Positions 35,150-62,993 of a DNA stretch of 64,000 nt are shown in pieces. Source of the DNA: an uncultured Gammaproteobacteria bacterium (lineage in GTDB: Bacteria; Patescibacteriota; Microgenomatia; Levybacterales; UBA12049). Location of the stretch: positions 3,191-67,190 of the forward strand of contig CAZCYO010000004.1 in the NCBI GenBank assembly GCA_964503265.1, read 5' to 3'. The notes under the pieces were generated by a model. That model made no database searches, was not told the origin of the DNA, and worked only from the letters and a program-made list of their open reading frames with translations. Each line of letters starts with the position of its first letter. Position 1 is the stretch's first letter. A program made the translations under genes and the position numbers.

Positions 35150-35211
35150 TAACACATACGACCGCTGGCACTCGCTAGCGTTCGCACTCTTCCGTGCTAT
35201 GTCATCCCTAA

Positions 35212-44278: not shown

Positions 44279-45814
44279 TTGACTTTTGCCTCAATTTCGC
44301 GTATTATGGGTCAATCATTTAGGAAACTGCCTCATACTTCCTCAATAAGAATAATTCTGCCCAGAATTTGCATGCAAAAACGTCTTTCTCACTATCGTGA
44401 TACTGTTACTACGCAGTCTCCAGTAATTTATCGCCGAGTTGTCGCGGATATTCGTCGTCGTCCTCTGTTTAATTTCGGGATCGCACTCATCGTTCTTTTT
44501 TTAATCTTACTTGCGAATTCTATACTTACGAAACCTGCAACAGAAGTGAAAAAAACACTCGCTCCTAAACCAGTTAAAACATATAGTATCGGCACAGCAC
44601 CAAAAGTAACGCTACAGGGAAAAGTCGAAAAATCGAACATCATTAAAATCATGGCGCAGACTGCAGGCGTCGTTAACGCAGTAAATGTGACAGAGGGAGA
44701 CAGTGTCACAAAAGGCCAAACACTCATCAACTTAGCCAGTAACTATCAAGGAGACTCAGCACCAGCTGTCCAAGCATCAATTGCTCAGACCAGTTATAAC
44801 AATACTGTCGCTACTTACACTACCCAAAAAGACTTACTAACAAAACAGCGTGACATCGCAAATGCAAGTTCAGATAACACCGAAGCACTTCGAAAAATCT
44901 CTGTTGAATCACGAGACTCAACACAGAGACTAATTGACGACACTCAGACGAATATCGATGGCCTAACAGCAACTATTAACCAGCTCGCTTCAAGTAATAA
45001 CCCGGCAGATCAGGCACAAGTCACAAGTGCAAAGCAGCTCCGCTCACAACTCAATGCCAGTATCACCCAGCTTCAATCTGGTGTTAACCAACTGAATTAC
45101 ACCACGAATACGAATAACCCACCAACACAGCTTGCAAATCTCCAGAAAGATATCACCCTTAAAGGACTTGATCTGCAGGAAAAAGCGTTAGAGTTAGGAA
45201 AAGAAGTCGCACGACTCCAAGCTAGTCTCGCGTGGATCGGTGCATCTGTCATGACACCAGCTACTCCAGTTGAGGGGAAAGTTGACCGTGTGTATGTAAC
45301 GGTCGGCCAAACAGTCACACCAGGAACAGTGCTTGCAACAATCGTCGGCGTCGAAGCAGATCCAACCATCGTTGTAAATCTTCCAGGTGAACTCGCTGCA
45401 ACTGTTTCACGAATTGAACCATCAGTCATTCATTTGGGTACTAAAACATACGAAACAACACCACGATATGTTTCATCTGAAGCAGTCGATGGCACACAAA
45501 ACGTCGCTCTCTTCTACCTCCCACCACAGTACACATCTGCTGTGACAGCTGATGGATTTGTGAGTGTCGATCTTCCTGTCGGAATGGCGAATACGAGTTC
45601 AACCATCCCGTTCGTTCCACTTGATGCTGTCTATCAAACAGCGAACAATGCGTATGTATATGTCGCTAAAAACGGTAAAGCTGAAAGTAAAACAGTCACA
45701 CTTGGAACAGTGTTTGGTGAATTTACCCAAATCGTTTCAGGACTAAATAGTGGTGATCAGGTTATTCTTAATCGAAATGTAATCGCTGGAGATAAAATAT
45801 CAGTGACAAAGTAA
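44279..45814 (+). CDS. Efflux transporter periplasmic adaptor subunit (HlyD/membrane-fusion protein family)
   Basis: TM anchor; biotin-lipoyl-like hairpin 'GKVEKSNIIKIMAQTAGVVNAVNVTEGDSVTKGQTLINL' and its C-terminal partner 'GKVDRVYVTVGQTVTPGTVLATI'; long coiled coil. It directly precedes the RND pump. The true start may be downstream (MQKRLSH...). Confidence 0.7.
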   Translation: MTFASISRIMGQSFRKLPHTSSIRIILPRICMQKRLSHYRDTVTTQSPVIYRRVVADIRRRPLFNFGIALIVLFLILLANSILTKPATEVKKTLAPKPVKTYSIGTAPKVTLQGKVEKSNIIKIMAQTAGVVNAVNVTEGDSVTKGQTLINLASNYQGDSAPAVQASIAQTSYNNTVATYTTQKDLLTKQRDIANASSDNTEALRKISVESRDSTQRLIDDTQTNIDGLTATINQLASSNNPADQAQVTSAKQLRSQLNASITQLQSGVNQLNYTTNTNNPPTQLANLQKDITLKGLDLQEKALELGKEVARLQASLAWIGASVMTPATPVEGKVDRVYVTVGQTVTPGTVLATIVGVEADPTIVVNLPGELAATVSRIEPSVIHLGTKTYETTPRYVSSEAVDGTQNVALFYLPPQYTSAVTADGFVSVDLPVGMANTSSTIPFVPLDAVYQTANNAYVYVAKNGKAESKTVTLGTVFGEFTQIVSGLNSGDQVILNRNVIAGDKISVTK

Positions 45815-45864
45815 AAAGGGAAAAGTCAAAACTCAAAAATACAATTCAAAAATAAAAACTGATT

Positions 45865-45889
45865 TGTCATCCTGAACTTGATTCAGGAT
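45865..45889 (+). repeat. TGTCAT-headed hairpin repeat, identical to the 42400 copy
   Basis: TGTCATCCTGAACTTGATTCAGGAT. It sits inside an intergenic motif that exists without it at 26128-26203. Confidence 0.7.
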
Positions 45890-45949
45890 CCATTCCTTAC
45901 CTGTGCTTTTGAATTTTAACTTTTCACATTTAAATTAAAAAATGAACAT

Positions 45950-48900
45950 ATGGAAAACGAAACATCTTATCTAGAGCGCTTACGGTTTGACCCGAAACTT
46001 AACAATTCGTTCATCGCAAACTATTTATTTAATCCTCGCTTAGCATTATTATTTATTTTTGCGATTATCGGAATTGGGATCTATAGTTTTATAAATCTCC
46101 CACGAGTCCTCAATCCTGATATTAAAATCCCTATCGTTATCGTCTCGACTGTTCTTCCTGGAGCAGGTCCAGCAGACGTTGAATCACTTGTTACCATTCC
46201 AATTGAAGACGGGGTGAGTAGTGTTCAGAAAGTAAAAAAAGTTACCTCAACATCTCGCGACTCTGTTTCAGTCGTTCAAATGGAATTTGAATCAGGCGTC
46301 GACCCAGATAAAGCCCGTTCTGATACACAGGCAGCAGTCGATAGTGTGAATAATTTACCAAGTGATGCACTCGCTCCAAAAGTTATCAAACTTGATTTCA
46401 CCAACTCCCCTATCTGGACATTTGCACTGGGAACATCCAACGACACTGGCAGTCTGATGCGCTACGCACGTCAACTTCGCGATAAAATAAAAGATTTAAG
46501 TAGTATTGATTCTGTACAAATTAGTGGACTTGAAGAACAAGAAATCCAAGTTATTATCAAGCCAACTACCGTCACCACATATGGTGTTAATCCACAACAA
46601 ATTGCAGGCAGTATCGCAACAGCACTCAAATCTTTCCCAGCCGGAACCATCTCGACGAGTACCACGACCTTTTCACTGAGTATCGATCAAGCTGCAACAT
46701 CAGTATCAGATCTGCGAAATCTTCAGGTATCACTTGGTGGCGTGATCGTTCCCCTCTCACAAATCGCAGATATTTACACGCACCCAAAACCAGACCAAAA
46801 CCCATCCCTTCTGGCAAGCAAGTCACAAACCGCCAAACAAGTCGTGACCTTTAGTGTATATAAAACTTCAGGAGTTAATATCGGTAAAGCATATGAAGAC
46901 ACAAAAAAACTCATTGATGAAGAACCGGGAATTATCTCAAACCAATTTCATGTCTACTCAGAAGTTAACTCAGCTGAGGAGATCGGTAAACAATTTAACG
47001 ATTTAACGCGTGACTTTTTAATCACCGTTATTCTCGTCTTTTTAGTACTCTTTATTTTCCTCGGTATCAAGCAAGCCATCATCGCCTCACTCGCGATTCC
47101 AGTTACGTTCTTTATCACCTTCTCAGTCATGTATATGACTGGACTTGCACTCAGTTTCATCTCGATGTTTTCACTGTTACTTGCACTTGGACTCCTCGTT
47201 GACGATACGATCGTGGTTGCTAGTGCGATGACATCCTATCATCGAAGTGGCAAATTCACACCAGCTGAGACTGGACTTCTCGTGTGGCGAGATTTCGTCG
47301 TCGCTATTTTCACAACGACCATTACGACAGTCTGGGCATTTTTACCACTCCTCTTATCCAGTGGCATTATCGGTGAATTTATTAAATCAATCCCGATCGT
47401 CGTCTCGACGACCCTTCTGGCGTCATTTGTCGTCGCGATGTTCGTGACACTTCCGTTCGTCGTCATGTTACTCAATGCGAAAATTCCATACCGTGTGACG
47501 ATGTTTTTACGTTATCTTTTGATCGGAATCTTAGTACTCGTACTGTTTTCAGTACTTCCAAAAGGTAATCTCTTTATCTTAGAATTGATCGCTATCGCAG
47601 TCGTCGGATTTATCGCATATCAAATTCGAGATATATTACGTGACCTAGTTCGCCCACAAGTTATGAACGTAAAACGATTTATAAGAGCTCGTTTTGCATC
47701 GCCTGAAAAAAAACGTTCAAATCGTGAATTTAGTGAGTATATAAATAATGGCATTATTCATTTTACTGTCATTAGTGATCGCTATCACAGAATTATTGAT
47801 ACTATTTTACGCTCTGCGCGCCTTCGACGCATGACCCTTGCGGTGGCGATTATTTTCTCACTTTTTTCATATATTTTACTTCCACTTGGATTTGTTAAAA
47901 ATGAATTCTTTCCGAAAAGTGATCAAGATTACGTCTACATGACACTCTCACTTCCAGCTGGAACGAATGTCGATATCGCGCGAGGATTTGCGACACGTAT
48001 CACAAACCAAGTAAGACAAATTGCTGCTGTTTCCTTCGTCACAGCAGATATCGGACAAGCATTTAGTAGTAGTGGTGGAACTGGCAGCAGTGGCGCAAAT
48101 GACATCCTGTTTACGCTCGTTTTGAATAAACCCCGAAACGTAACATCGACAGAACTTGGCCAAATTCTTCGTGACAAATACGGAGATCTTCCAGACGGAA
48201 AAGTAAGTATTACTGAATCAACCGGAGGTCCTCCAGCTGGCAGTGATTTACAGATTAGTATCTTTGGTGATGATTTAACGGTGCTTAGTAACTACGCTGA
48301 TCAGATTCAAACCTACTTAGGTAAACAAGCAGGAGTCGTTAACATCGATAAAAGCATCAAACCCGGCACATCGAAATTAGTTTTTACTCCAGATAAAACA
48401 GCAGTTGCAGATGCGGGTCTGACGACTGATACGATCGGATTTTGGATGAGAATTTTCGCGAGCGGCATTAGTACGAATTCAGTCAAATTCGTCAGCGAAG
48501 GATCAGAGAAACAAGACATCACCATTCGCATGGCAAATAATGCTCAGTCTCCTTCAGAAATCGGTTCATTAACCATCCCAGGCCAAGGACAAAACGGAGT
48601 AGCTCACACACTTTCTTCACTTGGCACACTCAGTCTGAAGAATAATCCGACACTCATTTCTCGTGAGGATGGAAAAAGAACAATTACCGTATCAGCTGGA
48701 GTTACTGCTGGATATTCTATTTCAGATCTTAATAAAAATCTTGAAATATATGCAGATTCACTGAATTTACCATCTGGATATGTATGGAAAACAGGTGGAG
48801 TTAATGAAGAGAATAATAATTCTGTACAGTCAATCTTAGCAGCCATGTTACTCTCATTCTTACTGATTATTGTAACTATGGTTATTCAGTTCTCATCATT

Positions 48901-49339
48901 TAGAAGAGCACTCATCGTAATGCTCGTAATCCCTCTCTCTATCTCCGGTGTGTTTATTATTTTTGCTCTCACAAACACCCCACTTTCCTTCCCAGCCTTG
49001 ATCGGAGTATTAGCACTATTTGGAATCGTAGTTAAAAACGCGATTTTAGTAGTCGATAAAATCATCCAGAATCAGGAGGCTGGACTTCCCTTTATCTCAT
49101 CTATTTCTGATGCTGCTGCAAGTCGACTTGAAGCGATCGCACTCACTTCAGTCGCTACCATCATCGGTCTTCTTCCGATCACGTTCTCAGATCCAGTCTG
49201 GCGCGGACTTGGCGGAGCGATCATCGCAGGACTAACATTCAGTGGAACCATCATGCTTTTCTTTATTCCGGTTGTTTATTATTATTGGTTTAAAAGTGAT
49301 GAAGAAAAAACAGTAACGAAAAGAAATTCTTCAAAATAA
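45950..49339 (+). CDS. RND superfamily efflux permease (AcrB/MMPL-like, 12 TM helices with large periplasmic loops)
   Basis: 1129 aa. Two repeated halves, each with a TM bundle; 'GLALSFISMFSLLLALGLLVDDTIVVA' and the second-half equivalent 'ALIGVLALFGIVVKNAILVVDKI' are typical RND TM4/TM10 regions. Confidence 0.85.
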   Translation: MENETSYLERLRFDPKLNNSFIANYLFNPRLALLFIFAIIGIGIYSFINLPRVLNPDIKIPIVIVSTVLPGAGPADVESLVTIPIEDGVSSVQKVKKVTSTSRDSVSVVQMEFESGVDPDKARSDTQAAVDSVNNLPSDALAPKVIKLDFTNSPIWTFALGTSNDTGSLMRYARQLRDKIKDLSSIDSVQISGLEEQEIQVIIKPTTVTTYGVNPQQIAGSIATALKSFPAGTISTSTTTFSLSIDQAATSVSDLRNLQVSLGGVIVPLSQIADIYTHPKPDQNPSLLASKSQTAKQVVTFSVYKTSGVNIGKAYEDTKKLIDEEPGIISNQFHVYSEVNSAEEIGKQFNDLTRDFLITVILVFLVLFIFLGIKQAIIASLAIPVTFFITFSVMYMTGLALSFISMFSLLLALGLLVDDTIVVASAMTSYHRSGKFTPAETGLLVWRDFVVAIFTTTITTVWAFLPLLLSSGIIGEFIKSIPIVVSTTLLASFVVAMFVTLPFVVMLLNAKIPYRVTMFLRYLLIGILVLVLFSVLPKGNLFILELIAIAVVGFIAYQIRDILRDLVRPQVMNVKRFIRARFASPEKKRSNREFSEYINNGIIHFTVISDRYHRIIDTILRSARLRRMTLAVAIIFSLFSYILLPLGFVKNEFFPKSDQDYVYMTLSLPAGTNVDIARGFATRITNQVRQIAAVSFVTADIGQAFSSSGGTGSSGANDILFTLVLNKPRNVTSTELGQILRDKYGDLPDGKVSITESTGGPPAGSDLQISIFGDDLTVLSNYADQIQTYLGKQAGVVNIDKSIKPGTSKLVFTPDKTAVADAGLTTDTIGFWMRIFASGISTNSVKFVSEGSEKQDITIRMANNAQSPSEIGSLTIPGQGQNGVAHTLSSLGTLSLKNNPTLISREDGKRTITVSAGVTAGYSISDLNKNLEIYADSLNLPSGYVWKTGGVNEENNNSVQSILAAMLLSFLLIIVTMVIQFSSFRRALIVMLVIPLSISGVFIIFALTNTPLSFPALIGVLALFGIVVKNAILVVDKIIQNQEAGLPFISSISDAAASRLEAIALTSVATIIGLLPITFSDPVWRGLGGAIIAGLTFSGTIMLFFIPVVYYYWFKSDEEKTVTKRNSSK

Positions 49340-51622: not shown

Positions 51623-52100
51623 ATTTATTTAACACCTCCTCTCATCCCGTGAGTAAAATTAAAAATAGTATTGTCCCATGGAATCTTTGTGATTCCAGGA
51701 TCTTCGGCTTGTTTAAGCCTCGAGATGCCGCATTTCTTCAGAAATGTGGCCCCTTTCAAGTCACGAGCAGTTTACATTACTCGATATTCCTTTCCACACT
51801 ATACTGCCCCATACTTAAAGACCGCTGAAGACGAGCATATACCCACCAGCTGATCTGGCTAAACTAGCTTCAAAATAGACGTTTCAGTGACGCAATTATC
51901 GGTGGAGTTCCTGCAAAAATTAGTACATACCGTACATAGTAACCATTAAATAACTATAAGAATCTAGTAAGAATCGCTCAATAAGTGCTGAGTTCACTGG
52001 TATTCTTTGTTTATATTTGTTATAGTTTTCATTCACTTGCCCAGTTCCTTGTTCTTTCTCCGTTTGGTGAATTTCCCTGGGTTCTATATAGCAGTTATTT

Positions 52101-53690
52101 ATGTTTGATAAAAATCCTATAATTCCATTTGATGAAGAGACGACGAAAAGAGAAGGCCAAGGCTTTCACCACAACGGCATAAAATATATTCATCATACTG
52201 ATTTAGATCACAGTGAAAGTGCCTACTATCGTTTTTCAACCTACCAGATTTATTTCTTAATCGGTGCGACGGTGCTTTTTGTGTTAGCACTCCTTATAAA
52301 TTGGCACGCGACACTCGTCGTTCTGATCTCAGCGCTGACGTTCTTATATTTCGCCGATTTACTCTTTAATTTCTTTTTAATTATCAGAAGTTTTTCTAAA
52401 CCCCCAGAAATTGTGATCTCTAAAGAACGACTCGATGCTGTCACTGATGCAGAGCTTCCAATTTATACGATTCTCTGTCCACTTTATCGCGAGTGGCAGG
52501 TCGTCCCCCAGTTCGTCTCATCGATTAATAATCTTGATTATCCGAAAGATAAACTTGAGGTTATGCTCCTTCTTGAAGAAGATGATGCTGACACGATTAA
52601 AAAAATTAAAGAATATGATTTACCCGATTATATTCAGATCGTCGTCGTTCCAGATTCACTCCCGAAGACCAAACCTAAAGCGTTAAATTATGGATTAAAA
52701 TTAACTCACGGTGAATTCCTCGTGATTTATGATGCAGAAGATGTCCCTGAAAAAGAACAATTAAAAAAATCAGTTCTTGCGTTTCACCAGCTTGATGATC
52801 ATGTCATTTGTATCCAGGCGAAACTTAACTTCTATAATCCCCACCAGAATATCTTAACGAGAGTCTTTACTGCTGAATATTCACTCTGGTTTGATTTAGT
52901 CCTCACAGGTCTCCAGTCAATTAAAGCGCCAATCCCACTAGGTGGTACGTCAAATCATTTTCGAACCAAATATCTTTATGACTTAAAAGGCTGGGATTCA
53001 TTTAATGTAACCGAAGATTGTGATTTAGGGATGCGACTTGTTAAAAGAGGTTTTAAAACAGCAATCATTGACTCAACGACACACGAAGAAGCGAACAGTA
53101 ATTATCTCAATTGGTTTCGTCAGCGTACACGCTGGATTAAAGGGTATATGCAGACCTATTTCGTTCACATGAGAGATCCACGAGAATTCATGCAGAAATG
53201 GCGCGAACCACACGTTATCACCTTTCAACTCGTCGTTGGTGGGAAAATTCTCTCCATGCTGATTAATCCACTCATGTGGGTTATCACCATTTCCTACTTT
53301 GTTTTTCGTCCACAAATTGGGCACTTTATTGAATCGTTTTATTTAACCCCAATTTTCTATATGGGTATCTTCTCACTCACTGTCGGGAACTTTTTATATC
53401 TGTACTACTACGTCATCGGCTGTGCGAAACGCGACTACGATAACATCATTAAATACATGTTCTTAGTGCCACTCTACTGGATCGCGATGAGTGCGGCAGC
53501 ATGGGTCGCGATATATGAAGTGATTAAAAATCCACACTACTGGCCCAAAACCGTCCACGGACTTCACATCGATAATAAAAAAGCCATGACCCAAGCCGCG
53601 AAAGTAATTGGTCGAGAGTTAGTCGACTACCATCCAAAACACAAACCAATCAAGCCAACCGAAATCTTAATCACACCAAGTCACATGTAG
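52101..53690 (+). CDS. Family-2 processive glycosyltransferase (CesA/BcsA/NodC-like polysaccharide synthase) with flanking TM domains
   Basis: GT-A core with 'VIYDAEDVP' (DxD-type), 'TEDCDLG' and a 'QRTRWIKG' (QxxRW) processivity motif. TM helices lie both N- and C-terminal. Confidence 0.8.
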   Translation: MFDKNPIIPFDEETTKREGQGFHHNGIKYIHHTDLDHSESAYYRFSTYQIYFLIGATVLFVLALLINWHATLVVLISALTFLYFADLLFNFFLIIRSFSKPPEIVISKERLDAVTDAELPIYTILCPLYREWQVVPQFVSSINNLDYPKDKLEVMLLLEEDDADTIKKIKEYDLPDYIQIVVVPDSLPKTKPKALNYGLKLTHGEFLVIYDAEDVPEKEQLKKSVLAFHQLDDHVICIQAKLNFYNPHQNILTRVFTAEYSLWFDLVLTGLQSIKAPIPLGGTSNHFRTKYLYDLKGWDSFNVTEDCDLGMRLVKRGFKTAIIDSTTHEEANSNYLNWFRQRTRWIKGYMQTYFVHMRDPREFMQKWREPHVITFQLVVGGKILSMLINPLMWVITISYFVFRPQIGHFIESFYLTPIFYMGIFSLTVGNFLYLYYYVIGCAKRDYDNIIKYMFLVPLYWIAMSAAAWVAIYEVIKNPHYWPKTVHGLHIDNKKAMTQAAKVIGRELVDYHPKHKPIKPTEILITPSHM

Positions 53691-53697
53691 TGATTTG

Positions 53698-53872
53698 TGT
53701 CATCCGCCCAGCGGCGGAGCCAGAAAATACTGTCATTCCGGCTTGTCCGGAATCAAAGTAGAAGTGTCATTCCCTTGAAAAAGGGAATCTATTAGACACA
53801 TCCTTAATAAGGAATTATCCAATAGATCCTCGATCGAGCCGAGGATGACATGTACTTTGGGAGGGAATGACA
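53698..53872. repeat. Cluster of five TGTCAT-headed hairpin repeats (three forward, two reverse)
   Basis: Forward copies: 53698-53718 TGTCATCCGCC-cagc-GGCGGA; 53731-53753 TGTCATTCCGG-cttgt-CCGGAAT; 53765-53788 TGTCATTCCCTT-gaaa-AAGGGAAT. Reverse copies: 53826-53850 atcctcg-atcgagc-cgaggat-GACA, and a degenerate gggagggaATGACA at 53858-53872. Confidence 0.7.
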
Positions 53873-53887
53873 GATTAACGAAAACTT

Positions 53888-55141
53888 ATGAAAAAAGCAT
53901 ATACGTTTGCAAATAGCGGAACCGTTTTACTTGGAGCCATCATGGTGTCAAACATACTTAACTTCGCCTTTAGTGCGCTCATGGGAAGAATTCTCCCGCT
54001 TGAACAGTTCGGCATCTTAACAGTTATTAGTTCGTTTTACTATTTAATCAGCATTTTCTTAAATGCGCTGGGAAATACGGTTAATCATTGGGTGGCATTT
54101 TTATCAAACACTGAAGGAAAACATGCAGGTGACACATTCTTTATGGGACTGCAAAAATCACTTTTGTTCATTGCTGGCATTTCGACACTACTCTGGGTAC
54201 TCGCCAGTCCGGCACTCCAAAACTTCTTTCATTTACCAAGTCTCTATCCGATTATTCTGTTTGCCCCACTCGTCTTCGCAGCGCCATTTTTAGGAGGAAT
54301 AAAAGGATACCTCCAGGGATCATTTTTATTCTTCTTTGCTGGAATAACGATACTGACAGAAGTCCTGTCCAAGCTTTTTTTAACAGTGGTCTTACTATCA
54401 GGACATACCGATCTTATGTACATAACCATCCCTTTTTCAGTTTGTGTCTCAACTATCATCGGATATATATTCCTTAAAAAAAGCGCGCTTACTCTAACAG
54501 ATCACTCATATAAATTTCCCAGGTCTTTTTTCCTTTTCTCAACACTCAATGCGATTATTTCAACCACGTTTTTATCAGTAGATGTAGTTTTAGTGAAACA
54601 CTTTTTATCAGGCGCACAGGCTGGCCAATATGCGTTACTTGCGATCACTGGGAAAATGGTGTATTTCTTTGGTTCACTCGGTAATGCGCTTCTGGTCAGT
54701 TACATTAGTCGGGATGAAGCGAAGCATAAAAACGTCCAGAAACCATTCGTTATATTCGTCAGTGCGACAGCTGCACTCTCTGCTTTCATGTTTATCATTC
54801 TTGGACCACTAGGGTTTATCACTCTTCCCATTTTACTTGGCGAGAAAATTATTCCCCTTCTTCCCTACCTCACTAATTATATTCTCGCCATCGTTTTCCT
54901 AACCATCGCAAATGTCATTATCAGCTTCCACATCACACTACACAATTACATTTTCTCCGTCATCGCGATTGCAGCGACGCTTGGGATGATACTCGGGATT
55001 ATGTATCTCCATAACAGCATTACAGACATCGTAAATATTTTATTACTAGTAACCTTCATCAGTCTAGTAAGCTGCTTCGCCCTGCATTTCTTATATTCAT
55101 CCCAGAAAATCACACCAAAAAAGATTTATATGAGTGTGTAA
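53888..55141 (+). CDS. Oligosaccharide/polysaccharide flippase (Wzx-like, MOP superfamily)
   Basis: 417 aa with about 12 TM helices. The N-terminus is of the 'polysacc_synt' type (GTVLLGAIMVSNILNFAFSALMGRIL). Confidence 0.65.
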   Translation: MKKAYTFANSGTVLLGAIMVSNILNFAFSALMGRILPLEQFGILTVISSFYYLISIFLNALGNTVNHWVAFLSNTEGKHAGDTFFMGLQKSLLFIAGISTLLWVLASPALQNFFHLPSLYPIILFAPLVFAAPFLGGIKGYLQGSFLFFFAGITILTEVLSKLFLTVVLLSGHTDLMYITIPFSVCVSTIIGYIFLKKSALTLTDHSYKFPRSFFLFSTLNAIISTTFLSVDVVLVKHFLSGAQAGQYALLAITGKMVYFFGSLGNALLVSYISRDEAKHKNVQKPFVIFVSATAALSAFMFIILGPLGFITLPILLGEKIIPLLPYLTNYILAIVFLTIANVIISFHITLHNYIFSVIAIAATLGMILGIMYLHNSITDIVNILLLVTFISLVSCFALHFLYSSQKITPKKIYMSV

Positions 55142-55147
55142 CCAACT

Positions 55148-55241
55148 TGTCATCCTGAACTTGGATTCAGGATCCAGATAATTGTCATTCCTGCGAAGTC
55201 AGGAATCTATACAAAATGATTCCGGTCAAGCCGGAATGACA
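55148..55241. repeat. Cluster of three TGTCAT-headed hairpin repeats (two forward, one reverse)
   Basis: 55148-55173 TGTCATCCTGAA-cttgga-TTCAGGAT; 55183-55206 TGTCATTCCTG-cgaagt-CAGGAAT; 55219-55241 attccgg-tcaag-ccggaat-GACA. Confidence 0.7.
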
Positions 55242-55255
55242 GAACAAATAATACT

Positions 55256-56158
55256 ATGACTAACGAAAACAAACTATCAATCTCTATCTGTGTCCCAGCT
55301 TTTAATGAGGAAGCAAATATTCGAAATATTTTAGAAGGACTCTCCCATCAAAAACTTTTTCGCGTCCACATAAATAAAATTATTGTCGTATCTAGCGGTA
55401 GTACCGATAAGACTGCTGAAATCGTGGAGGAGTTTATGAAAACGAATCCTCGTCTATCGCTTATCAACGAAGAGAACCGAAATGGAAAAGCCGCCGCGAT
55501 AAATGAATTTTTATCAGTGGTCAGTGATCCAGTCGTCGTCATCCAAAGTAGCGACACGATACCAGTTGAAGATACGATAGAACTTTTATGTAGACCCTTT
55601 TTAGATGACGCGAACATCGGGATGACTGGTGGTGCCCCGATCCCACTGAATGACCCGAATACGTGTCTAGGATACATCGTACATTCATGGTGGTGGTTCC
55701 ACCGTAACATCCCACGATTTGGAGAGATAGTCGCATTCAGAAATAACATCGGGATGATCTCAGCGAAGACGGCGGTGGACGAAGCATATATCCAGGCGAA
55801 GATGATTCAGGGAGGATATAAAGTAGTTCACATCGACGAAGCGATCGTCCGAAATAAAGGAGCTGATAATTTAGGCGACCTCATTAAACAGCGCCGACGA
55901 ATTTTTAACGGCCACTCCCGTCTCTATCAATCAGAAAAAATAAAAATCGATAACATGACGAAATCCAGTCTCCATCTATTATTATTCAAATATAAAATGA
56001 AGAATTTAAAGGAAGCGACGTGGTTACTTTGTGGAATTGGAATAGAATTTTATGCTCGAATACTTGGGGCAATGGATATGTATCTCTCTAAAAAAAATCC
56101 AATCACCTGGGATATAGCAAAATCTACTAAAAAATTGAAGATGAAAGATGTATCATGA
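55256..56158 (+). CDS. Family-2 glycosyltransferase
   Basis: N-terminal 'ISICVPAFNEEANIRNILEGL' and a later 'VVIQSSDTIP' DxD-like region. GT-A fold. Confidence 0.75.
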   Translation: MTNENKLSISICVPAFNEEANIRNILEGLSHQKLFRVHINKIIVVSSGSTDKTAEIVEEFMKTNPRLSLINEENRNGKAAAINEFLSVVSDPVVVIQSSDTIPVEDTIELLCRPFLDDANIGMTGGAPIPLNDPNTCLGYIVHSWWWFHRNIPRFGEIVAFRNNIGMISAKTAVDEAYIQAKMIQGGYKVVHIDEAIVRNKGADNLGDLIKQRRRIFNGHSRLYQSEKIKIDNMTKSSLHLLLFKYKMKNLKEATWLLCGIGIEFYARILGAMDMYLSKKNPITWDIAKSTKKLKMKDVS

Positions 56159-57279
56159 TTGTCTATTTAAACTTTGCACCAATTGATTTTGTAGGAGGAG
56201 CTGAACTTTGGCTTCGAGGCATCTCAAAAGCCACAAGTAAACATGAAGAGACTTATGTTATTTCTGTTGCTTCCCAAATTGCAGATATCTATGGACAAAT
56301 TGTACTTAATAGAAAATTTAGTGAAAATAGAACACCCGAAAAAATGGATGAAGTGAAATTAATTAAACTAAATATTTTGAGTTTTATTCCCTTCAACAAA
56401 AAATTTTGGGAAGTCAGGAATATACTTAAGAAAGCACGTCTAATCTATATAAAACTTGAGCTTTTAGAATTACTAATCACAACTTATTTTATTGGGATAA
56501 GTTCACTCAATAAAGTTATCGGTGGTGTGCACTCACCTCTTCACTATACAACGAGTAAGTCTTTTTTTAGCAAACTACATAATCTCGTTTATTCTTCAGC
56601 TCTTTATGGATTTATTATTAGAAAACTAAATAAAGTACATGTGCTTAATAAAAAAGATTTATTGTATTTAATGAAGAAATATAATATTGAAAATATTATT
56701 CAAATGTACGATGGTGTCGATATGAAAAAAAATGAAAATTTAAAAACGAAAATAGATCATACTATTCTTAAAGTAATTATTGTCGGAGAATTATCATTAA
56801 GAAAAGGTACAGACATACTTATAAAAATAATTAAAAAATCTCCAAAGAACTTCTTCTTCACCATTATTGGTGATGGTCCTCTAAAAAAATCTGTTAAAAA
56901 GTTACCGAAAAAATATAACTATCATTATATTGGATATCTTCATGACAAAAAGAAATTAAATCAACTTTATAAAGAACATGATATATTATTATTCCCTTCT
57001 CGTGCAGAAACACAAGGACTCGTTATGCCCGAAGCGATGAATTTCGGACTTAAAATAGTGAACTCTGCAGAAGTTAATTTAGGAGCTCCTAAGTTTGCCG
57101 AGCTATCATCCAATACAGATGATCAAGAAGAGTATGTAAAATTACTAGATCAAGTATTTATAGAAAAAAAGTCACAACAGAAAATCAAAGAGAAAATTCA
57201 CGAGTATGCTTATAGAGAATTCTCTAACGATATCCTTCAGCCTAAATTTCTCTCTAAGATATTATCAATAAATAACTAA
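56155..57279 (+). CDS. GT-B fold glycosyltransferase (family 4/GT1-like)
   Basis: C-terminal 'LLFPSRAETQGLVMPEAMNFGLKIVNS' is the GT4 E-x7-E motif region. 4-nt overlap with the upstream gene. Confidence 0.75.
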   Translation: MIVYLNFAPIDFVGGAELWLRGISKATSKHEETYVISVASQIADIYGQIVLNRKFSENRTPEKMDEVKLIKLNILSFIPFNKKFWEVRNILKKARLIYIKLELLELLITTYFIGISSLNKVIGGVHSPLHYTTSKSFFSKLHNLVYSSALYGFIIRKLNKVHVLNKKDLLYLMKKYNIENIIQMYDGVDMKKNENLKTKIDHTILKVIIVGELSLRKGTDILIKIIKKSPKNFFFTIIGDGPLKKSVKKLPKKYNYHYIGYLHDKKKLNQLYKEHDILLFPSRAETQGLVMPEAMNFGLKIVNSAEVNLGAPKFAELSSNTDDQEEYVKLLDQVFIEKKSQQKIKEKIHEYAYREFSNDILQPKFLSKILSINN

Positions 57280-57280
57280 T

Positions 57281-58201
57281 ATGAAAAATAATATAGTTTC
57301 CGTTTCTGTAGTAATTGCTGCATATAATGCAGAAAAGAATATTAAGAGACTAACTGAATCAATCCTAACACAGAAACATAAATCTTATAAATTATCTGAA
57401 GTAATAGTTAACTCAGACAGAAGTACGGATAGTACCATCACGAAATTAAAAGAAATAAAGAATTCTAACCTCAAAATTTCTATTGCGAAAAAAAGATTGG
57501 GGTTTGCAGGAACACTGATAAAATTTATAAAATCAAATAATTCAGATATACTGATCCTCCTTAATGACGATGTAATCATTAAAGACAATTTGTTTTTAGA
57601 AAAAATTATTCAACCATTTATACACGAAAAAGATGTTGGACTCGTATGTGGCAATCCTACGGCAACTATAATTAAAAATTTCATATCAGAAGCTGTAAGG
57701 TCTGGATATTTAGCATACAAAAACATGGCAGATAATAATAACTCTGGAAATAATATTTTTACAGTTGATGGTAAGGCACTTTGTGTATCAAGAAAACTAG
57801 CAAAAACAATGACGTTTCCTGAAGAATATAGCATAATGGGAAATGTAGATAAATATATCTATTTTTTATGTATTAAAAATGGATTTAAATATCGGTACGT
57901 AAAAGAAGCCCAAATGCACTTTAAGATGCCAGATACAATGAAAGATTTTGTTAAATGGCAGACCAGAAATTATAAATCAAATAAGTATAAGGTAAAAGAA
58001 GCATGGGGCGATTTAGTGGAGAAAGAATATCAACATTCTAAAAACGATTTTAGAAACTATAAAATTATTGAATTTATAAAAAACCCTTTAGGAAGTTTAT
58101 TTATATTGATGCTTGGATTCTATTGCTCATATAAAGCAAAAATGGAACAAGATCAATTTGAAACTAAATGGGATTTAGTAGGAAGCACAAAAAATATATG
58201 A
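57281..58201 (+). CDS. Family-2 glycosyltransferase
   Basis: 'VSVVIAAYNAEKNIKRLTESIL' and 'ILLNDDVII' (DD motif). Confidence 0.75.
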   Translation: MKNNIVSVSVVIAAYNAEKNIKRLTESILTQKHKSYKLSEVIVNSDRSTDSTITKLKEIKNSNLKISIAKKRLGFAGTLIKFIKSNNSDILILLNDDVIIKDNLFLEKIIQPFIHEKDVGLVCGNPTATIIKNFISEAVRSGYLAYKNMADNNNSGNNIFTVDGKALCVSRKLAKTMTFPEEYSIMGNVDKYIYFLCIKNGFKYRYVKEAQMHFKMPDTMKDFVKWQTRNYKSNKYKVKEAWGDLVEKEYQHSKNDFRNYKIIEFIKNPLGSLFILMLGFYCSYKAKMEQDQFETKWDLVGSTKNI

Positions 58202-59787
58202 ATATAAAGAAGATTATAAATATTCTTGAGGAATACCATATGTACTTTGTGTTATTTTTCTTAATTACTGTTAGTTTTTTTGGTGTTCTTATTTATTATT
58301 CTAATGGGATGAATGTTATCTATGCTGACACAATGTCCCGCTTAGATATTTCTAGAAAAGTAATAGACAATCTTAATCCAGGAATTGCGCAGCTAGGAAA
58401 CGTCTGGCTCCCACTTCCACAGCTTCTTATGCTCCCTTTTATATGGAACGACTTCCTTTGGCATTCTGGATTAGCTGGTGGAATTATGTCGGCAATTATG
58501 TTCGTTATGAGTGGAATGTTTATTTATTTTTCGTCAATTTTAATTACAAAATCTAAGATAGCTTCGTTTCTTAGTTTGTGTATCTTTGCCTTAAATATCA
58601 ATATATTTTATTTACAAGCAACAGCGATGTCAGAATCTCTTTTCTTATGTACCGTAGCAGCAGCAATTTATTTTTTACTCAAATGGTATTATACTAGCGA
58701 TAAATTATACCTAGTACCTGCAGGTGCTGCAATTAGCGCTATGACCTTCACAAGATATGAAGGACTTTCTCTTCTTTTTGCAAGTATTGCTGCCGTCTTT
58801 CTCGTATCACTTCTTAAAAGTAGAAGCTTTTCTAAAGCAGAAGGCCAAACCATCCTTTTCTCAATTCTCGCAATCACAGGATTTACAGCATGGTGTCTAT
58901 ATCTTGCAGCTATTTTTGGTGACCCATTTTATTGGATTCATTATTATGTCGCACCAGCAACTACTGGTGATAATGCACTAAAGGCAGTAAAAATATATTC
59001 TCAGGAGAAATCATTTATTGCTGCTGTGTGGCAATATATGACCTCTACAATATGGATGGATGGTCTTATTCCAGTTATTTATGCATGTATTGGTGTTCTT
59101 ATACTTTTTTATAAATCTATTAAGGAGAAGTCATGGATGTTTCTCATTTTATTAATGCCTTTAGCCCTTTATTTATTCATGGTATTAACTCTGCAGAGAA
59201 ATACTCCAATTGTTCAACCTAATTTAACAATCGAAACTATTATTTCTGCAACTACTAGTATGGAAAATGGTTTTAACATTCGTTATGGGATACTATTGCT
59301 ACCATGGGCTGCAGTAATGTGCGCATATATATTTAATATTAAACGGTTTGGAATTCGATATATTTTTTTCCTACTATTTCTTGTACAAGTTGGTACGTAT
59401 TTTTATCCCAAATTTACAATCATTTACCAGATTCCAGCAAGAATTTATCAAAAACCATATGCTAAGGTCGTTGACTTTATGAAAGAGAACTACAATGACG
59501 GTAAGATTTTTATTAGCGCATCATCTCATGAAGATCAAATGTTTGAGATGGGATTTGATTATAAAACATATATTCACGAAGGTGCAGGAAAGTATTGGAA
59601 AGAAACACTTGATAACCCTCCGAGATATGCCACATGGGTAGTAATTGATTATGGTCATCCAGATGATACAATAGCGAAATGGAGAAATAAGGTGCAACCC
59701 CATCTTGATCGTGATTATAATCTCGTATTTAAAGATGCACAGGTCAGTATCTATAAAATTAAAACACGACCACAAATAATTATTTAA
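58198..59787 (+). CDS. GT-C-fold-like polytopic membrane glycosyltransferase (ArnT/PMT-like), tandem paralog 1
   Basis: About 11 TM helices then a C-terminal soluble domain of about 150 aa. Conserved first-loop block 'DTMSRLDISRKVIDNLNPGIAQLGNVWLPLPQLL'. It is a paralog of the next gene. Start placed at the internal Met (MNIKK) to give a 4-nt overlap. Confidence 0.45.
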   Translation: MNIKKIINILEEYHMYFVLFFLITVSFFGVLIYYSNGMNVIYADTMSRLDISRKVIDNLNPGIAQLGNVWLPLPQLLMLPFIWNDFLWHSGLAGGIMSAIMFVMSGMFIYFSSILITKSKIASFLSLCIFALNINIFYLQATAMSESLFLCTVAAAIYFLLKWYYTSDKLYLVPAGAAISAMTFTRYEGLSLLFASIAAVFLVSLLKSRSFSKAEGQTILFSILAITGFTAWCLYLAAIFGDPFYWIHYYVAPATTGDNALKAVKIYSQEKSFIAAVWQYMTSTIWMDGLIPVIYACIGVLILFYKSIKEKSWMFLILLMPLALYLFMVLTLQRNTPIVQPNLTIETIISATTSMENGFNIRYGILLLPWAAVMCAYIFNIKRFGIRYIFFLLFLVQVGTYFYPKFTIIYQIPARIYQKPYAKVVDFMKENYNDGKIFISASSHEDQMFEMGFDYKTYIHEGAGKYWKETLDNPPRYATWVVIDYGHPDDTIAKWRNKVQPHLDRDYNLVFKDAQVSIYKIKTRPQIII

Positions 59788-59788
59788 T

Positions 59789-61348
59789 ATGAACAATGAA
59801 GAATCACCAGTTGCTGCTCCGAAATGGCATGAAAGAATTATCCTGGCCCTTCTTTTTTTGACCTCTACTGTCGCGATTTATTTTTCTTATACGACTGGTG
59901 TGTTACTCGCATATAACGATGCGACTGCGCATTTGAATACGGCTCGACGGATTATCGATAGTTTAACACCTGGAATCGTACAGATCGGGAGTGTGTGGCT
60001 TCCCCTTCTTCATTTACTTGAACTTCCTTTTGTCGCGAATTATACACTTTGGCAGACGGGGCTGGCTGGGTCGATCGTATCTGGAATTAGTTTTATCGTA
60101 GGGGGAATATTCTTATATAAACTCCTTTATTACGTGACGAAGAGTTTCTGGGCGGGGTTCTTCGGGGTGCTCGTATTCGCGACGAATGTGAATATGCTGT
60201 ATTTACAGTCAACACCGATGTTTGAGCCACTTCTTATCGCGACTGCGATGGGTGCTGTATATTATCTCGCTCGGTGGTCGATGGAAGATGATTATAAATA
60301 TCTGATTTTCGCCTCTATCTGCACCATGCTTGCCACACTGACCCGTTATGACGGCTGGGCACTCTTTCTCACTACTGGTGCATTTGTATTACTTCGCAGT
60401 ATTAAAATGCGAAAAAGCTGGGACGGACCACTCATTCTTTTCTTAACGATGGCGGGATTTGGGATTTTACTCTGGCTCCTTTATAACTGGCTCATTTTCG
60501 GTGATCCATTATTCTTTTCTCGTGGTGAATTTTCAGCAGCTGCACAGCAGGATGTGCTCTTCGCACATAACGCACTGCCGACGAAACATGATTTACCTCT
60601 CTCAATCGTTACGTATTCACTATCGACTCTTCTTAACATCGGCGCGATAACGACAGCGCTTGGTGTATGGGGACTCCTGTCATTTCTAAAAAATAACATT
60701 ACCTCTGCTAGAAAATATGTCCCACTGCTTCTTATCACTCCCTATGTCTTTAATATCGCGACGCTGTATCTGGGCCAATCTGTTATCTGGCTTCCGATGG
60801 TGCCGCCATTTTTTACGACCTACTTTAACGCTCGCTATGGTGTACTCATGTTACCAGCGATCGCATTTTTCTCGGGCTACCTCGCTTCTAGAAACCTCTT
60901 TTTTAAATTTGTCGTGATCGCAGCCACAGTCGCACAGGTCATCCTTTTTATGAACCCTGCCATTCTCCCACTCTTTGGTCGAGAGATTGGTGTGATCACA
61001 CTGCAGGATACTGTCTCGAGTGTAAATGCAGATACGAAAAATGCGAGTAGCTATCTTCATGATCACTATAATTCTGGACTAATTCTCGTTTCATCAGCCA
61101 GTAGTGATGCATTTATTTTCAGAGCTGGGATTCCACTGAAGCATTTTATTACTGAAGGATCAGGGCACTACTGGAAAGAGTCATTAGTTAGTCCAGCGAA
61201 GTATGCATCGTGGATCGTTTTCTTTAGAGATCATACAGATCGTGTCGGAAAAGAAATTTATCTATCATCAGAACTTACCAAAAATTTCACAGAAGTATAT
61301 CATGATAACACCTACCGAATATGGAAAAAAGACATATCAGAAAACTAA
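59789..61348 (+). CDS. GT-C-fold-like polytopic membrane glycosyltransferase, tandem paralog 2
   Basis: Same architecture; 'DATAHLNTARRIIDSLTPGIVQIGSVWLPLLHLL' aligns with paralog 1. Higher GC than paralog 1. Confidence 0.45.
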   Translation: MNNEESPVAAPKWHERIILALLFLTSTVAIYFSYTTGVLLAYNDATAHLNTARRIIDSLTPGIVQIGSVWLPLLHLLELPFVANYTLWQTGLAGSIVSGISFIVGGIFLYKLLYYVTKSFWAGFFGVLVFATNVNMLYLQSTPMFEPLLIATAMGAVYYLARWSMEDDYKYLIFASICTMLATLTRYDGWALFLTTGAFVLLRSIKMRKSWDGPLILFLTMAGFGILLWLLYNWLIFGDPLFFSRGEFSAAAQQDVLFAHNALPTKHDLPLSIVTYSLSTLLNIGAITTALGVWGLLSFLKNNITSARKYVPLLLITPYVFNIATLYLGQSVIWLPMVPPFFTTYFNARYGVLMLPAIAFFSGYLASRNLFFKFVVIAATVAQVILFMNPAILPLFGREIGVITLQDTVSSVNADTKNASSYLHDHYNSGLILVSSASSDAFIFRAGIPLKHFITEGSGHYWKESLVSPAKYASWIVFFRDHTDRVGKEIYLSSELTKNFTEVYHDNTYRIWKKDISEN

Positions 61349-62616
61349 GAAGATATAAGATCGCGATATACTCAGGAATACTTCTGATCCTTTTTTTTAT
61401 GATGGCAGGTAAAGTAATTCACCATACATTACCTATCCATATCAGTGCTGATAGCGATTCACTCCTGTGGAAATATCAGTGCATCGATACCATGAAAACC
61501 TCTCGTGATCGCGCGCGAAACTGGCAAGAGAGTAAAGACCTGCATAACTCTATCACGAAACAAGTCACGCTTATTAAAAGTCTCGGTGCGAACTGCATCG
61601 CGATCGATACTCCCTATGATGCTGAATTTAAGGAATATCTCACCGCATGGGTTAGTGCGTCACGAAAAGAACATCTGAAGATATGGTTCCGCGGAAATTT
61701 TTCAGGCTGGGAGGGATGGTTCGACTATCCACACACACTCACATCTGAAAAGTTATTACGAGATACTGCTATTTTTATCCAAGCGAATGCTGATCTTTTT
61801 GAAGATGGAGATATATTTACTCCAGCCCCCGAAGGAGAAAATGGTGGTGAATTTAATCAGGTTGAAATTGACGAATACCCTGCATTCCGATCATTTCTCT
61901 CAAATGAATATATTATCGCCAAACATTCATTTGAAAAAATTGGGAAAAAAGTCGAAGTGAACTGGTTATCTATGAATGGAGGATTAGCTCGTCGCATGCT
62001 GGATCAGGAAACTATTAACGCGACAGGAAATCTGGTTACGATCGACCACTACATAAAAACCGCACCAGAGATGAGTGATTACATTAATTATTTCTATACG
62101 AAGTTCGGCGCGAAAGTCGTTATCGGCGAATTCGGCGCCCCGATTCCAGATATTAACGGCTCTATGACAGAGGACGAACAGGCGAAATTTATCGATTCTC
62201 TTTTTTTTGAACTCTATAAACATCGCGATAAAGTTGAAGGAATTAATTACTGGGTGTTATACGATAGCTCAACTGCAATCATACATCCCGATGGATCACA
62301 TCTGAAAGCCGCAGCAGTCGTTAAAAAATATTTTATGCCCCTTCGCATCACAGGAATAATAAAAGACACATCCAACGAGCCGCTAGCTGATGCACAAGTA
62401 AAAGAGACAACCTATGGCCAAGTAACGAAAACCGACTCAAACGGAGAATTTTCATTTATCATCCCGCGAACAGATACGACACTTTCAATTCAAAAACCAG
62501 ACTACACGACATTCACGACACCAGTTCCCGCCACTCTCTCCACCCCCCTAACCCTCACCCTCCCCAAAACCAACCCCACCCTGTGGGATAACATTAAAAA
62601 TATCTTCAAAAGATAA
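61321..62616 (+). CDS. Membrane-anchored glycoside-hydrolase-like (TIM-barrel, GH5-like) protein with C-terminal CarbopepD_reg-like beta-sandwich
   Basis: N-terminal TM. 'VVIGEFGAPI' resembles the GH5 nucleophile strand. The C-terminal 'ITGIIKDTSNEPLADAQVKETTYGQVTKTDSNGEFSFIIP' resembles carboxypeptidase-regulatory/Cna-B domains. Confidence 0.4.
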   Translation: MEKRHIRKLRRYKIAIYSGILLILFFMMAGKVIHHTLPIHISADSDSLLWKYQCIDTMKTSRDRARNWQESKDLHNSITKQVTLIKSLGANCIAIDTPYDAEFKEYLTAWVSASRKEHLKIWFRGNFSGWEGWFDYPHTLTSEKLLRDTAIFIQANADLFEDGDIFTPAPEGENGGEFNQVEIDEYPAFRSFLSNEYIIAKHSFEKIGKKVEVNWLSMNGGLARRMLDQETINATGNLVTIDHYIKTAPEMSDYINYFYTKFGAKVVIGEFGAPIPDINGSMTEDEQAKFIDSLFFELYKHRDKVEGINYWVLYDSSTAIIHPDGSHLKAAAVVKKYFMPLRITGIIKDTSNEPLADAQVKETTYGQVTKTDSNGEFSFIIPRTDTTLSIQKPDYTTFTTPVPATLSTPLTLTLPKTNPTLWDNIKNIFKR

Positions 62617-62629
62617 GTATTTTCTTCTC

Positions 62630-62993
62630 CATAGTGATTTGCAGCTAAATCGTCCGTGTGAACAATGCGTTAAAAAAATCTTTTGGAGTGAGCGTTAAAC
62701 TGGAAGACTCCCTATTTTTTGTAATTGAAACAAAGAGCGTAAAGTTTTTGCGGAGTGAATGTTCAGGGGAAATCCGGCGAACTGCCGAAAGGGAGCGGAC
62801 GAGCGAAGCGACGGAGCTCGCTTGCGAATAAAGTGAGACAAGGGTGGAACGGACAATTCCCCGATAAATGAACGTAGCAAAAATAGCACGACTTTCACTT
62901 ACAAAAGAGTTTTGGTACTTTTTCGGCAAAAAGTACAGAATAAAAGCATAATAGAACTTATCTAATAGATCCTCAATCTAGTTGAGGATGACA
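62630..62993 (+). repeat. Dispersed structured repeat, copy 2 (about 364 nt, with a roughly 110-nt GC-richer insert)
   Basis: Homologous ends with copy 1. Internal hairpin gtactttt-tcggca-aaaagtac and 3' hairpin atcctcaa-tctag-ttgaggat-gaca; both show compensatory changes relative to copy 1. Confidence 0.75.

Follow-up and report, generated by a model that had tools for sequence, protein, structure and literature searches.

The DNA analysed here, referred to as the window, is a stretch of 64,000 nt from a Patescibacterial genome assembly (GCA_964503265.1, contig CAZCYO010000004.1, positions 3,191 to 67,190 of the forward strand). It holds a predicted polysaccharide locus of eight open reading frames (ORFs), designated P1 to P8, all on the plus strand between positions 52101 and 62616. 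These ORFs were found at the coordinates given by an earlier, first-pass annotation of the sequence, and all are called genes on the 236,902-bp NCBI contig, with shorter starts for P2, P6 and P8. The junctions from P1 to P8 measure, in order, +197, +114, −4, +1, −34, +1 and −28 nt. The description of eight co-directional genes with short or overlapping junctions was thereby confirmed; the spacings run from −34 to +1 nt, the exceptions being two sizeable gaps of 197 nt (53691–53887, gap 1) and 114 nt (55142–55255, gap 2). The locus is operon-like, and co-transcription is assumed. Its 5′ neighbours are an HlyD/AcrB-type efflux pair, a YggT-like gene and a divergent unannotated ORF, and for this reason its boundaries are considered sound.

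The enzyme classes first assigned to P1 through P8 all agreed with sequence analysis, structure prediction and homologs. Every one of these classes is known already. What appears to be new is that a processive synthase, a GT-C glycosyltransferase and a clan GH-A glycoside hydrolase (GH) are combined in a conserved manner and repeatedly fused; no prior description of this was found in the searchable literature.

Synthase, GT-C enzymes and hydrolase

P1 (52101–53690, plus strand) encodes a membrane-integrated processive family 2 glycosyltransferase (GT2) similar to BcsA, PgaC and XagB. It matches three Pfam GT2 families (PF13641, Glyco_tranf_2_3, 1.6e-23; PF13632; PF00535) and contains the motifs DAED (aa 211–214), TED (aa 304–306) and QRTRW (aa 341–345), while hydropathy places transmembrane (TM) segments at about residues 58–90 and 377–471. 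The best solved relative is cellulose synthase BcsA (9fmv, 3.9e-12), with a match spanning residues 78–417. The NCBIfam scores of P1 lie far under the equivalog cut-offs of CelA (84 versus 699 bits) and PgaC (55 versus 422 bits), and no PilZ domain was matched in the Pfam scan. With every sequence hallmark present, P1 is a predicted BcsA/PgaC-like processive beta-glycan synthase. Its orthologs are 60–72% identical across classes of the candidate phyla radiation (CPR), which is unusually conserved.

P6 (58168–59787, plus strand, GC 0.337) and P7 (59789–61348, plus strand) had been described as paralogs, which fits their full-length identity of 31% (E 2e-66). The true start of P6 is probably 58198; P6 would then overlap P5 by 4 nt (ATGA) and encode 529 aa, as gene call P0121 does. 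An AlphaFold model of P6 (pLDDT 89.5, pTM 0.90) was compared with the PDB by Foldseek, and all 24 matches at E ≤ 1e-3 were GT-C enzymes, with TM-scores of 0.44–0.56. Among these fold neighbours are DPY19, STT3/PglB/AglB, ALG12/ALG9, Pmt4 and ArnT, and also AftB and Emb. The first-pass annotation had allowed for the two being unrelated membrane proteins; as the model matches GT-C enzymes only, P6 and its paralog P7 are, by the structure prediction for P6, GT-C-fold enzymes. The eleven TM segments proposed for both are approximate, the P6 model showing roughly 11–13 membrane helices.

An invariant Asp is located in the first extracytoplasmic loop after TM1, within YAD (aa 52–54) in P6 and YND in P7 (D30 of P0001), and P7, like P6, keeps all invariant residues of the family alignment A1. 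No sequence-level relative of either protein was found in the PDB. The PMT_2 family is matched below threshold by P6 (19.9 versus 26.1 bits) and not by P7, and the Pfam scan revealed no MIR domain, so that neither protein qualifies as a PMT/GT39 member. The WWDxG motif of STT3/PglB/AglB is absent from both translations.

P8 (61321–62616, plus strand) encodes an N-terminally membrane-anchored protein with a clan GH-A (GH5-like) hydrolase domain and a C-terminal CarboxypepD_reg beta-sandwich, the latter matched at 2.2e-9. The AF2 model (pLDDT 92.5) consists of a clan GH-A (beta/alpha)8 barrel followed by the beta-sandwich, and Foldseek returned 523 PDB matches at E ≤ 1e-3, headed by barrels of clan GH-A (GH2, GH1, GH157, GH158, GH5 and GH30). 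Invariant DHY (aa 242–244) and GEFG (aa 269–272) make up a GH5-like HxY/GEFG signature. The acid/base region is non-canonical, with PEGEN (aa 170–174) in place of NEP. In Pfam, P8 does not match PF00150 (Cellulase), and Glyco_hydro_cc scores 20.4 versus a threshold of 21. The long form with the N-terminal anchor is supported, because homologs cover 100% of its length. P8 is a predicted exported, membrane-anchored hydrolase of clan GH-A.

Conservation and gene fusions

Conservation was assessed in 80 fetched species-representative loci, the flanks of which end at 10 kb. Synthase, GT-C and hydrolase genes are syntenic in most of them. A P7-type GT-C gene is present in 77 loci and is directly followed by a P8-type hydrolase gene in 61; a P1-type synthase gene lies upstream on the same strand in 47, despite the 10-kb flanks. 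Between synthase and GT-C, the relatives carry variable GT2 and GT4 genes, and this order is conserved across distant classes. Homologs were found in Saccharimonadales, Levyibacteria, Woesebacteria, Gottesmanbacteria and other Patescibacteria, all with generic source annotations. The GT-C family as a whole comprises at least 589 matches among species-representative genomes and at least 938 representative clusters (50% identity, E ≤ 1e-30) in a library of 1.84 billion proteins.

In several proteins the parts of the locus are fused. GT-C is joined to GH5 or GH5_mannosidase in P0033 and P0058 and to a P8-like domain in P0384 (37% identity to P8, E 2e-72), whereas P0469, P0473 and P0505 combine a P1-type synthase with GT-C. 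Three-part fusions are P0434, in which a GT2 domain resembling dolichol-phosphate mannose synthase (DPMS) precedes P1 and GT-C, and P0512, with P1, GT-C and GH113. The synthase modules are 47–49% identical to P1 of the window (E 1e-146 and 2e-152). The named fusions derive from Chloroflexota, namely from Anaerolineae, Ktedonobacteraceae and the cultured Thermosporothrix hazakensis (WP_111321778.1). Since the three components are syntenic in most relatives and fused in others, P1, GT-C and hydrolase constitute one functional module. The combination of synthase, Wzx-like flippase and GT-C enzymes had been called atypical. This is correct insofar as no description of it was found in the literature, but the combination is not idiosyncratic, being conserved in Patescibacteria and also present in Chloroflexota.

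These fusions bear on whether the locus is a single system at all. P1 could make an independent homopolymer next to a Wzx-type heteroglycan unit (P2–P5) and an unrelated GT-C/hydrolase pair, with hairpin arrays separating the transcription units. The sizeable gaps do come immediately behind P1 and behind P2 and are occupied by stable hairpins, the GC content differs between segments, and the middle genes vary freely between genomes. The fusions of P1 with GT-C and of GT-C with hydrolase argue strongly against such a juxtaposition, however, as they couple the outermost genes. So does the order of synthase, variable glycosyltransferases, GT-C and hydrolase, which is kept across distant classes, and in the gaps themselves the plus-strand hairpins have no T-tracts and no promoter-like sites were called. 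A chance neighbourhood of independent systems is therefore judged highly improbable.

The short form of P1 found in the window is not the only one. Among the 46 P1-type genes in the fetched loci, 27 carry an N-terminal DPMS-like domain of about 220 aa, which the window P1 is without. Its closest matches are dolichol-phosphate mannose synthase (5mlz, 2.6e-26), ArnC and GtrB, with ArnC, PgfS (1.3e-23) and AglJ as NCBIfam neighbours. Enzymes of the DPMS/ArnC/GtrB type make the lipid-linked donors that are consumed by GT-C enzymes. By analogy with the orthologs, in which such a domain is fused to the partner synthase, P6 and P7 would use polyprenyl-phosphate-linked donors.

The same fusions would fit a second role for the lipid. 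In this scheme, the DPMS-like enzyme loads the first sugar on polyprenyl phosphate, P1 elongates the chain processively and exports it, GT-C moves it en bloc to its acceptor (protein, lipid anchor or peptidoglycan), and trimming falls to P8, making the system a synthase-dependent analogue of O-antigen ligation. In P0434 and P0512 the domains follow one another as the proposed reactions and the genes do, the 27 orthologs mentioned have the DPMS-like domain attached directly to P1, and AglJ, among its best NCBIfam neighbours, is the initiator of Dol-P-linked glycans. Glucan synthesis by Escherichia coli OpgH (MdoH) reportedly requires polyprenyl phosphate as well. Ligation en bloc is nonetheless considered unlikely: no GT-C enzyme outside the STT3 family is known to us to transfer more than one sugar at a time, and P6 and P7 are without the WWDxG motif of that family. 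The scheme also leaves the two or three tandem GT-C paralogs, the MOP flippase and the multiple extra glycosyltransferases unexplained.

The tandem of P6-type and P7-type genes is restricted to a subset of loci (L001, L002, L005–L007 and L009). In L081 (GCA_900206355.1, contig of 607,813 bp), three tandem GT-C genes (540, 531 and 500 aa) were observed together with parts of two further module copies, an arrangement that suggests several such glycan systems per genome. Another polytopic membrane protein of about 520 aa, family X, is encoded upstream of P7-type genes in 53 of the 80 loci, for example at L038:8170–9909 and in the C-terminal half of L077:6513–9899. It lies directly 5′ of the P7-type gene in 46 of 56 cases, in the same position as P6-type genes, with which it is nearly mutually exclusive. 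No Pfam or PDB match was obtained for family X, and homology to P6 as a divergent relative was not supported (hhalign probability 5%). Family X may be a second membrane glycosyltransferase or polymerase of the module.

Variable cassette and putative glycan assembly

P2 (53888–55141, plus strand) is a polytopic, putative flippase of the MOP/Wzx type with about 12 hydrophobic segments. Its own match to Polysacc_synt is sub-threshold (0.0054, 16.6 versus 28.2 bits), whereas orthologs with 29–37% identity over about 400 aa exceed the Pfam thresholds, as in L008 (33.5 versus 28.2) and L025 (35.7 versus 23, Polysacc_synt_3). Many P2 orthologs carry a fused C-terminal GT4. In L005, L008, L010, L022, L025, L055 and L064, this results in proteins of 800–920 aa with a MOP flippase-like module and a complete cytoplasmic GT4, an unusual fusion.

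P3 (55256–56158, plus strand; Glycos_transf_2, 2.1e-21) is a GT2 of the conserved part of the locus, with 87% identity in L084, 62–65% identity in L001–L009 and 6yv7 (8e-10) as closest solved relative. It is followed by the GT4 gene P4 (56155–57279, plus strand; Glycos_transf_1, 5.6e-17, GC 0.287) and a second GT2 gene, P5 (57281–58201, plus strand; Glycos_transf_2, 2.6e-19, GC 0.281). P3 and P5 are both generic GT2s by their PDB neighbours. P3 was also considered as a split-off DPMS-like domain of the long P1 form, but this was rejected, as the two are 36% identical over 94 aa only, the DADLQ motif is missing, and both forms of P1 co-occur with P3-type genes.

The GC content of P4, P5 and P6 drops to 0.28–0.34 from about 0.40 elsewhere in the locus. 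Compared with L084/L085, the closest available relative, identities amount to 95% for P1, 77% for P2, 87% for P3, 84% for P7 and 65% for P8; P4 and P6 are 42% and 52% identical to their counterparts in L084. An ortholog of P5 is absent there, and its place is taken by an epimerase gene, two small ORFs and a GT4 fragment, also of low GC content. P4–P6 appear to be a low-GC cassette that has been exchanged in the closest relative. The pattern is as in serotype-variable surface-polysaccharide loci, because conserved machinery flanks an exchangeable centre.

On balance, and with modest confidence, the locus is taken to encode a hybrid assembly line that makes a polysaccharide or glycoconjugate of the cell envelope, not primarily a system for protein glycosylation. 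P1 would polymerise a backbone in the cytoplasm and thread the polymer through the cell's single membrane. Outside, this glycan would be extended or decorated by the GT-C enzymes with polyprenyl-phosphate-linked sugars or oligosaccharides, the donor being made, in about half of the orthologs, by the DPMS/GtrB/ArnC-like domain fused to P1. P3–P5 and the putative MOP flippase P2 may build and flip a strain-specific lipid-linked unit, and P8 may trim, remodel or release the polymer, comparable to BcsZ for cellulose and PgaB for poly-N-acetylglucosamine (PNAG). Exchange of the cassette P4–P6 would diversify the glycan.

Homologous loci contain additional genes for pyruvyl transferases, methyltransferases, CE4 and PIG-L deacetylases, aminotransferases, epimerases, nucleotidyltransferases and acetyltransferases, with CE4 deacetylases inside the cluster in 18 of the 80 loci. 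The first-pass annotation had proposed glycosylation of surface proteins or lipids in place of a classical exopolysaccharide (EPS). This is not favoured here, because GT-C is fused to a processive synthase and to glycoside hydrolases, and because the homologous loci hold polysaccharide tailoring genes (pyruvyl transferase, CE4 deacetylase, sugar-nucleotide enzymes).

Several observations weigh against the hybrid assembly line. The fold neighbours of the GT-C enzymes include the protein-modifying STT3, PMT and DPY19, compatible with a protein acceptor. A polyprenyl-phosphate sugar synthase is not recognisable in the cluster of the window, P5 (2.5e-6) and P3 being weakly similar to such enzymes, and no priming phosphoglycosyl transferase was detected by Pfam in P1–P8, so that, as far as the 64 kb go, the lipid-linked branch lacks parts. 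Neither was a priming transferase present in the Pfam-scanned representatives of ten recurrent extra gene families of the related loci. As to the product, the DPMS-like and PMT_2-like similarity, the mannosyltransferase fold neighbours and the GH113 and GH5_mannosidase fusions give a hint of a mannose-containing polymer, an indirect indication which itself counts among these weaknesses.

Precedents for protein modification are PMT in actinobacteria and, in streptococci, the GtrB/PgtC2 and Pgf systems. Following these, GT2-made polyprenyl-phosphate sugars would be flipped and moved by GT-C onto Ser/Thr/Pro-rich linkers of anchored surface proteins. Systems of this kind (PMT; GtrB/PgtC2; PgfS/PgfM1/PgfM2) share with the locus and its relatives a PMT_2-like GT-C, a PgfS-like GT2 (the DPMS-like domain of P1 orthologs, at 1.3e-23) and Ser/Thr/Pro-rich anchored proteins, and Pmt4, DPY19 and STT3 are among the fold neighbours of P6. 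In streptococci, GtrB and GT-C enzymes glycosylate Ser/Thr-rich disordered regions (PMC12041528). A sortase gene adjoins the cluster in L083.

In the window, small proteins in which a Pro/Thr/Ser-rich linker comes after an N-terminal TM anchor are encoded at 37635–38333, 40310–40912 and 40915–42093, with the strongest such linker, PTQVPTPTVTLIPTKKPTIYPTSYPP, in 37635–38333. These Pro/Thr-rich proteins, which had been put forward as substrates, are indeed present, but no genetic linkage connects their genes to the locus. The known protein O-glycosylation systems are, moreover, without processive synthase or glycoside hydrolases, and P6 and P7 have no MIR domain and stay under the PMT_2 threshold. 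Protein O-glycosylation leaves the association and fusion with a QxxRW synthase and glycoside hydrolases unexplained, as it does the pyruvyl transferase, CE4 deacetylase and sugar-nucleotide genes, and it is regarded as quite unlikely.

A hybrid envelope-glycan pathway shares features with several described systems. Synthase-dependent EPS systems (BcsA/BcsZ, PgaC/PgaB, NodC/NodB) likewise have a membrane GT2 with D, D, D and QxxRW between TM helices, which in P1 are predicted from hydropathy, and a dedicated extracytoplasmic glycoside hydrolase in the operon, and the CE4 deacetylases of some homologous loci find their counterpart there. The window locus differs from them in having no PilZ/c-di-GMP module, no BcsB/PgaA-type partners and no outer-membrane porin, its host being monoderm, and in the coupling, and sometimes fusion, of the synthase to GT-C enzymes.

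Gtr-type transmembrane glycosylation (GtrA/GtrB/GtrC; CsbB/GtcA/YfhO; ArnC/ArnT) resembles the module in its GT-C fold and in the DPMS/ArnC/GtrB-like domain that is fused to P1 in many orthologs. In these multi-component systems, a cytoplasmic GT2 loads polyprenyl phosphate, a flippase moves the sugar and a GT-C enzyme transfers it outside (PMC11127046, PMC8035078, PMC7389260). The putative flippase here is of the MOP/Wzx type, however, not of the GtrA or SMR type, and the GtrB-like module is absent from the cluster in the window, although present in relatives as a P1 fusion. P6 and P7 belong to a distinct GT-C family, with PMT_2 matched only below threshold and no solved-structure relative by sequence, and, rather than acting on a polymer of separate origin, they are joined to a hydrolase and a processive synthase.

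Lipomannan/lipoarabinomannan (LM/LAM) and arabinogalactan of mycobacteria and corynebacteria are made by the GT4 enzymes PimA/B, the GT2 Ppm1 and the GT-C enzymes MptA, MptB, Emb and Aft. Here, too, cytoplasmic GT-A and GT-B steps and flipping are followed by extracytoplasmic GT-C polymerisation from polyprenyl-phosphate sugars. Tandem GT-C paralogs, AftB and Emb among the P6 fold matches, and GT4-PIG-L fusions in homologous loci add to the likeness. The actinobacterial pathway is nevertheless without a QxxRW synthase, and no sequence-level relation of P6 and P7 to Mpt, Emb or Aft exists.

A bolder version of the favoured reading, which is possible but rather doubtful, holds that the trio of P1, GT-C and GH-A hydrolase with the DPMS-like domain is an undescribed fifth bacterial polysaccharide route, operating as one physical machine in which the chain is lipid-primed and/or extended outside. 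Its product would be the major envelope glycopolymer of Patescibacteria and many Chloroflexota, given serotype-like diversity by the exchangeable low-GC cassette. If this were true, the diversity of the cassette would matter for how the cells attach to hosts and are recognised by phages.

Patescibacteria, which live attached to host cells, account for a large part of bacterial diversity. To our knowledge, their surface chemistry is almost unknown, and the walls of Patescibacteria and Chloroflexota are essentially uncharacterised. Because it is so conserved (at least 938 clusters; P1 identity of 60–72%), the module is a strong candidate for the machinery of the main Patescibacterial surface glycan, and as such would bear on host recognition, phage receptors and envelope integrity. 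The synthase/GT-C/hydrolase fusions connect two types of pathway that are held separate in textbooks. Since a fused ortholog exists in the cultured Thermosporothrix hazakensis, the question is experimentally testable.

Hairpin arrays and flanking regions

Both gaps within the locus are filled with arrays of TGTCAT hairpins, as had been reported. Each unit consists of TGTCATYC, three to four variable stem pairs, a loop of 4–7 nt, the returning stem and GRATC. Gap 1 (53691–53887) contains units in both orientations, at 53698 (degenerate), 53732, 53766 and 53826 (minus strand), with a half-unit at 53863–53872; part of the array is a composite in which a hairpin stands between a forward and an inverted unit. 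It folds with a minimum free energy (MFE) of −66.5 kcal/mol (z = −5.2). Gap 2 (55142–55255) holds three units, at 55149 and 55184 in forward and at 55219 in inverted (minus-strand) orientation, with an MFE of −35.5 kcal/mol (z = −4.7). A further unit with a perfect 8-bp stem is located 3′ of the last gene (62969–62992, minus strand), and a similar one is present in L084.

In the whole window, 10 perfect units were counted versus 0.2 expected in shuffles. All are intergenic, six of them in the two gaps and the others at 42401, 45866, 50981 and 62969, so that the perfect units are confined to 42.4–63.0 kb and the first 42 kb are free of them. The units at 42401–42427 and 45866–45892 are identical over 27 nt (TGTCATCCTGAACTTGATTCAGGATCC) and are found in two intergenic regions 5′ of efflux-pump genes. 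In the stems, 96.7% of cells are paired, with 36 compensatory cells versus 11 expected, figures that are partly circular as the units were chosen as hairpins. L084 has arrays at both equivalent junctions with the same forward/middle/inverted composite. Single units were found in more distant Patescibacteria, including one at the P2/P3 junction of L006.

The TGTCAT hairpins are a dispersed family similar to repetitive extragenic palindromic (REP) sequences and bacterial interspersed mosaic elements (BIME), not specific to the locus. The idea that they punctuate this locus in particular was accordingly not retained, although the arrays themselves are real. With REP/BIME of enterobacteria and pseudomonads they have in common a size of 24–28 nt, an extragenic position, a conserved 5′ head and a variable, compensating stem, as well as dispersed copies and clusters of alternating orientation in operon junctions and after last genes; they differ in the consensus TGTCATYC...GRATC, which has no GTAG head. 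A cognate RAYT (Y1) transposase was not noticed in the window, no search aimed at it having been made. No plus-strand promoter-like or terminator-like sites were called in gaps 1 and 2. A role as intrinsic terminators was not supported, the plus-strand units being without T-tracts and the scan flagging one minus-strand unit only. At the P1/P2 and P2/P3 junctions, the arrays would most likely act on the mRNA, through stability or differential expression within the operon, and the hairpins may spread as small mobile or duplicating elements. Such a repeat family at operon junctions offers a handle on the control of gene expression or on mobile DNA in reduced genomes.

Upstream of P1, a leader of roughly 470 nt had been noted and a search for riboswitches suggested. 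The long non-coding stretch exists and measures 478 nt, but it is really a divergent intergenic region and not unusually structured, with an ordinary folding energy (z = −1.5). It has no Rfam match, either at gathering thresholds or at E ≤ 1, and no DNA similarity to the 80 fetched loci. Its proximal region (51955–52100, plus strand) is about 70% identical to the 161-nt region 5′ of the P1 ortholog in L085, where the gene order is hexapeptide acetyltransferase, the 161-nt gap and P1. The distal part is not conserved in that relative, whereas the proximal 150 nt or so are, including an extended −10-like sequence TGTTATAGT at 52018–52026; a promoter and 5′ untranslated region are probable here. 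A known riboswitch, for example for c-di-GMP, was rejected on the absence of an Rfam match, the ordinary fold and the conservation of the proximal part only.

The divergent ORF 5′ of P1 (51077–51622, minus strand) encodes a protein with a signal peptide and no Pfam match. It stands where L085 has the co-directional hexapeptide acetyltransferase gene, and a weak match of 14 aa at 51892–51933 (E 0.085) may be a remnant of the C-terminus of that acetyltransferase.

Further upstream, the efflux pair (44279–49339) consists of an HlyD-like membrane-fusion protein and an AcrB-family resistance-nodulation-division (RND) transporter, encoded in what is expected to be a single-membrane Patescibacterium, and is syntenic in L085. 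The region 32000–36000 is GC-rich (0.46–0.52 versus about 0.40) and holds the gene for a 721-aa SPFH/Band_7 protein (32984–35149). At 35399–36319 on the minus strand, 16 kb from the locus, a membrane-anchored protein is encoded which, from its translation alone, contains NodB/CE4-like motifs (TFDAE... and GSHSYTD) and is possibly a polysaccharide or peptidoglycan deacetylase.

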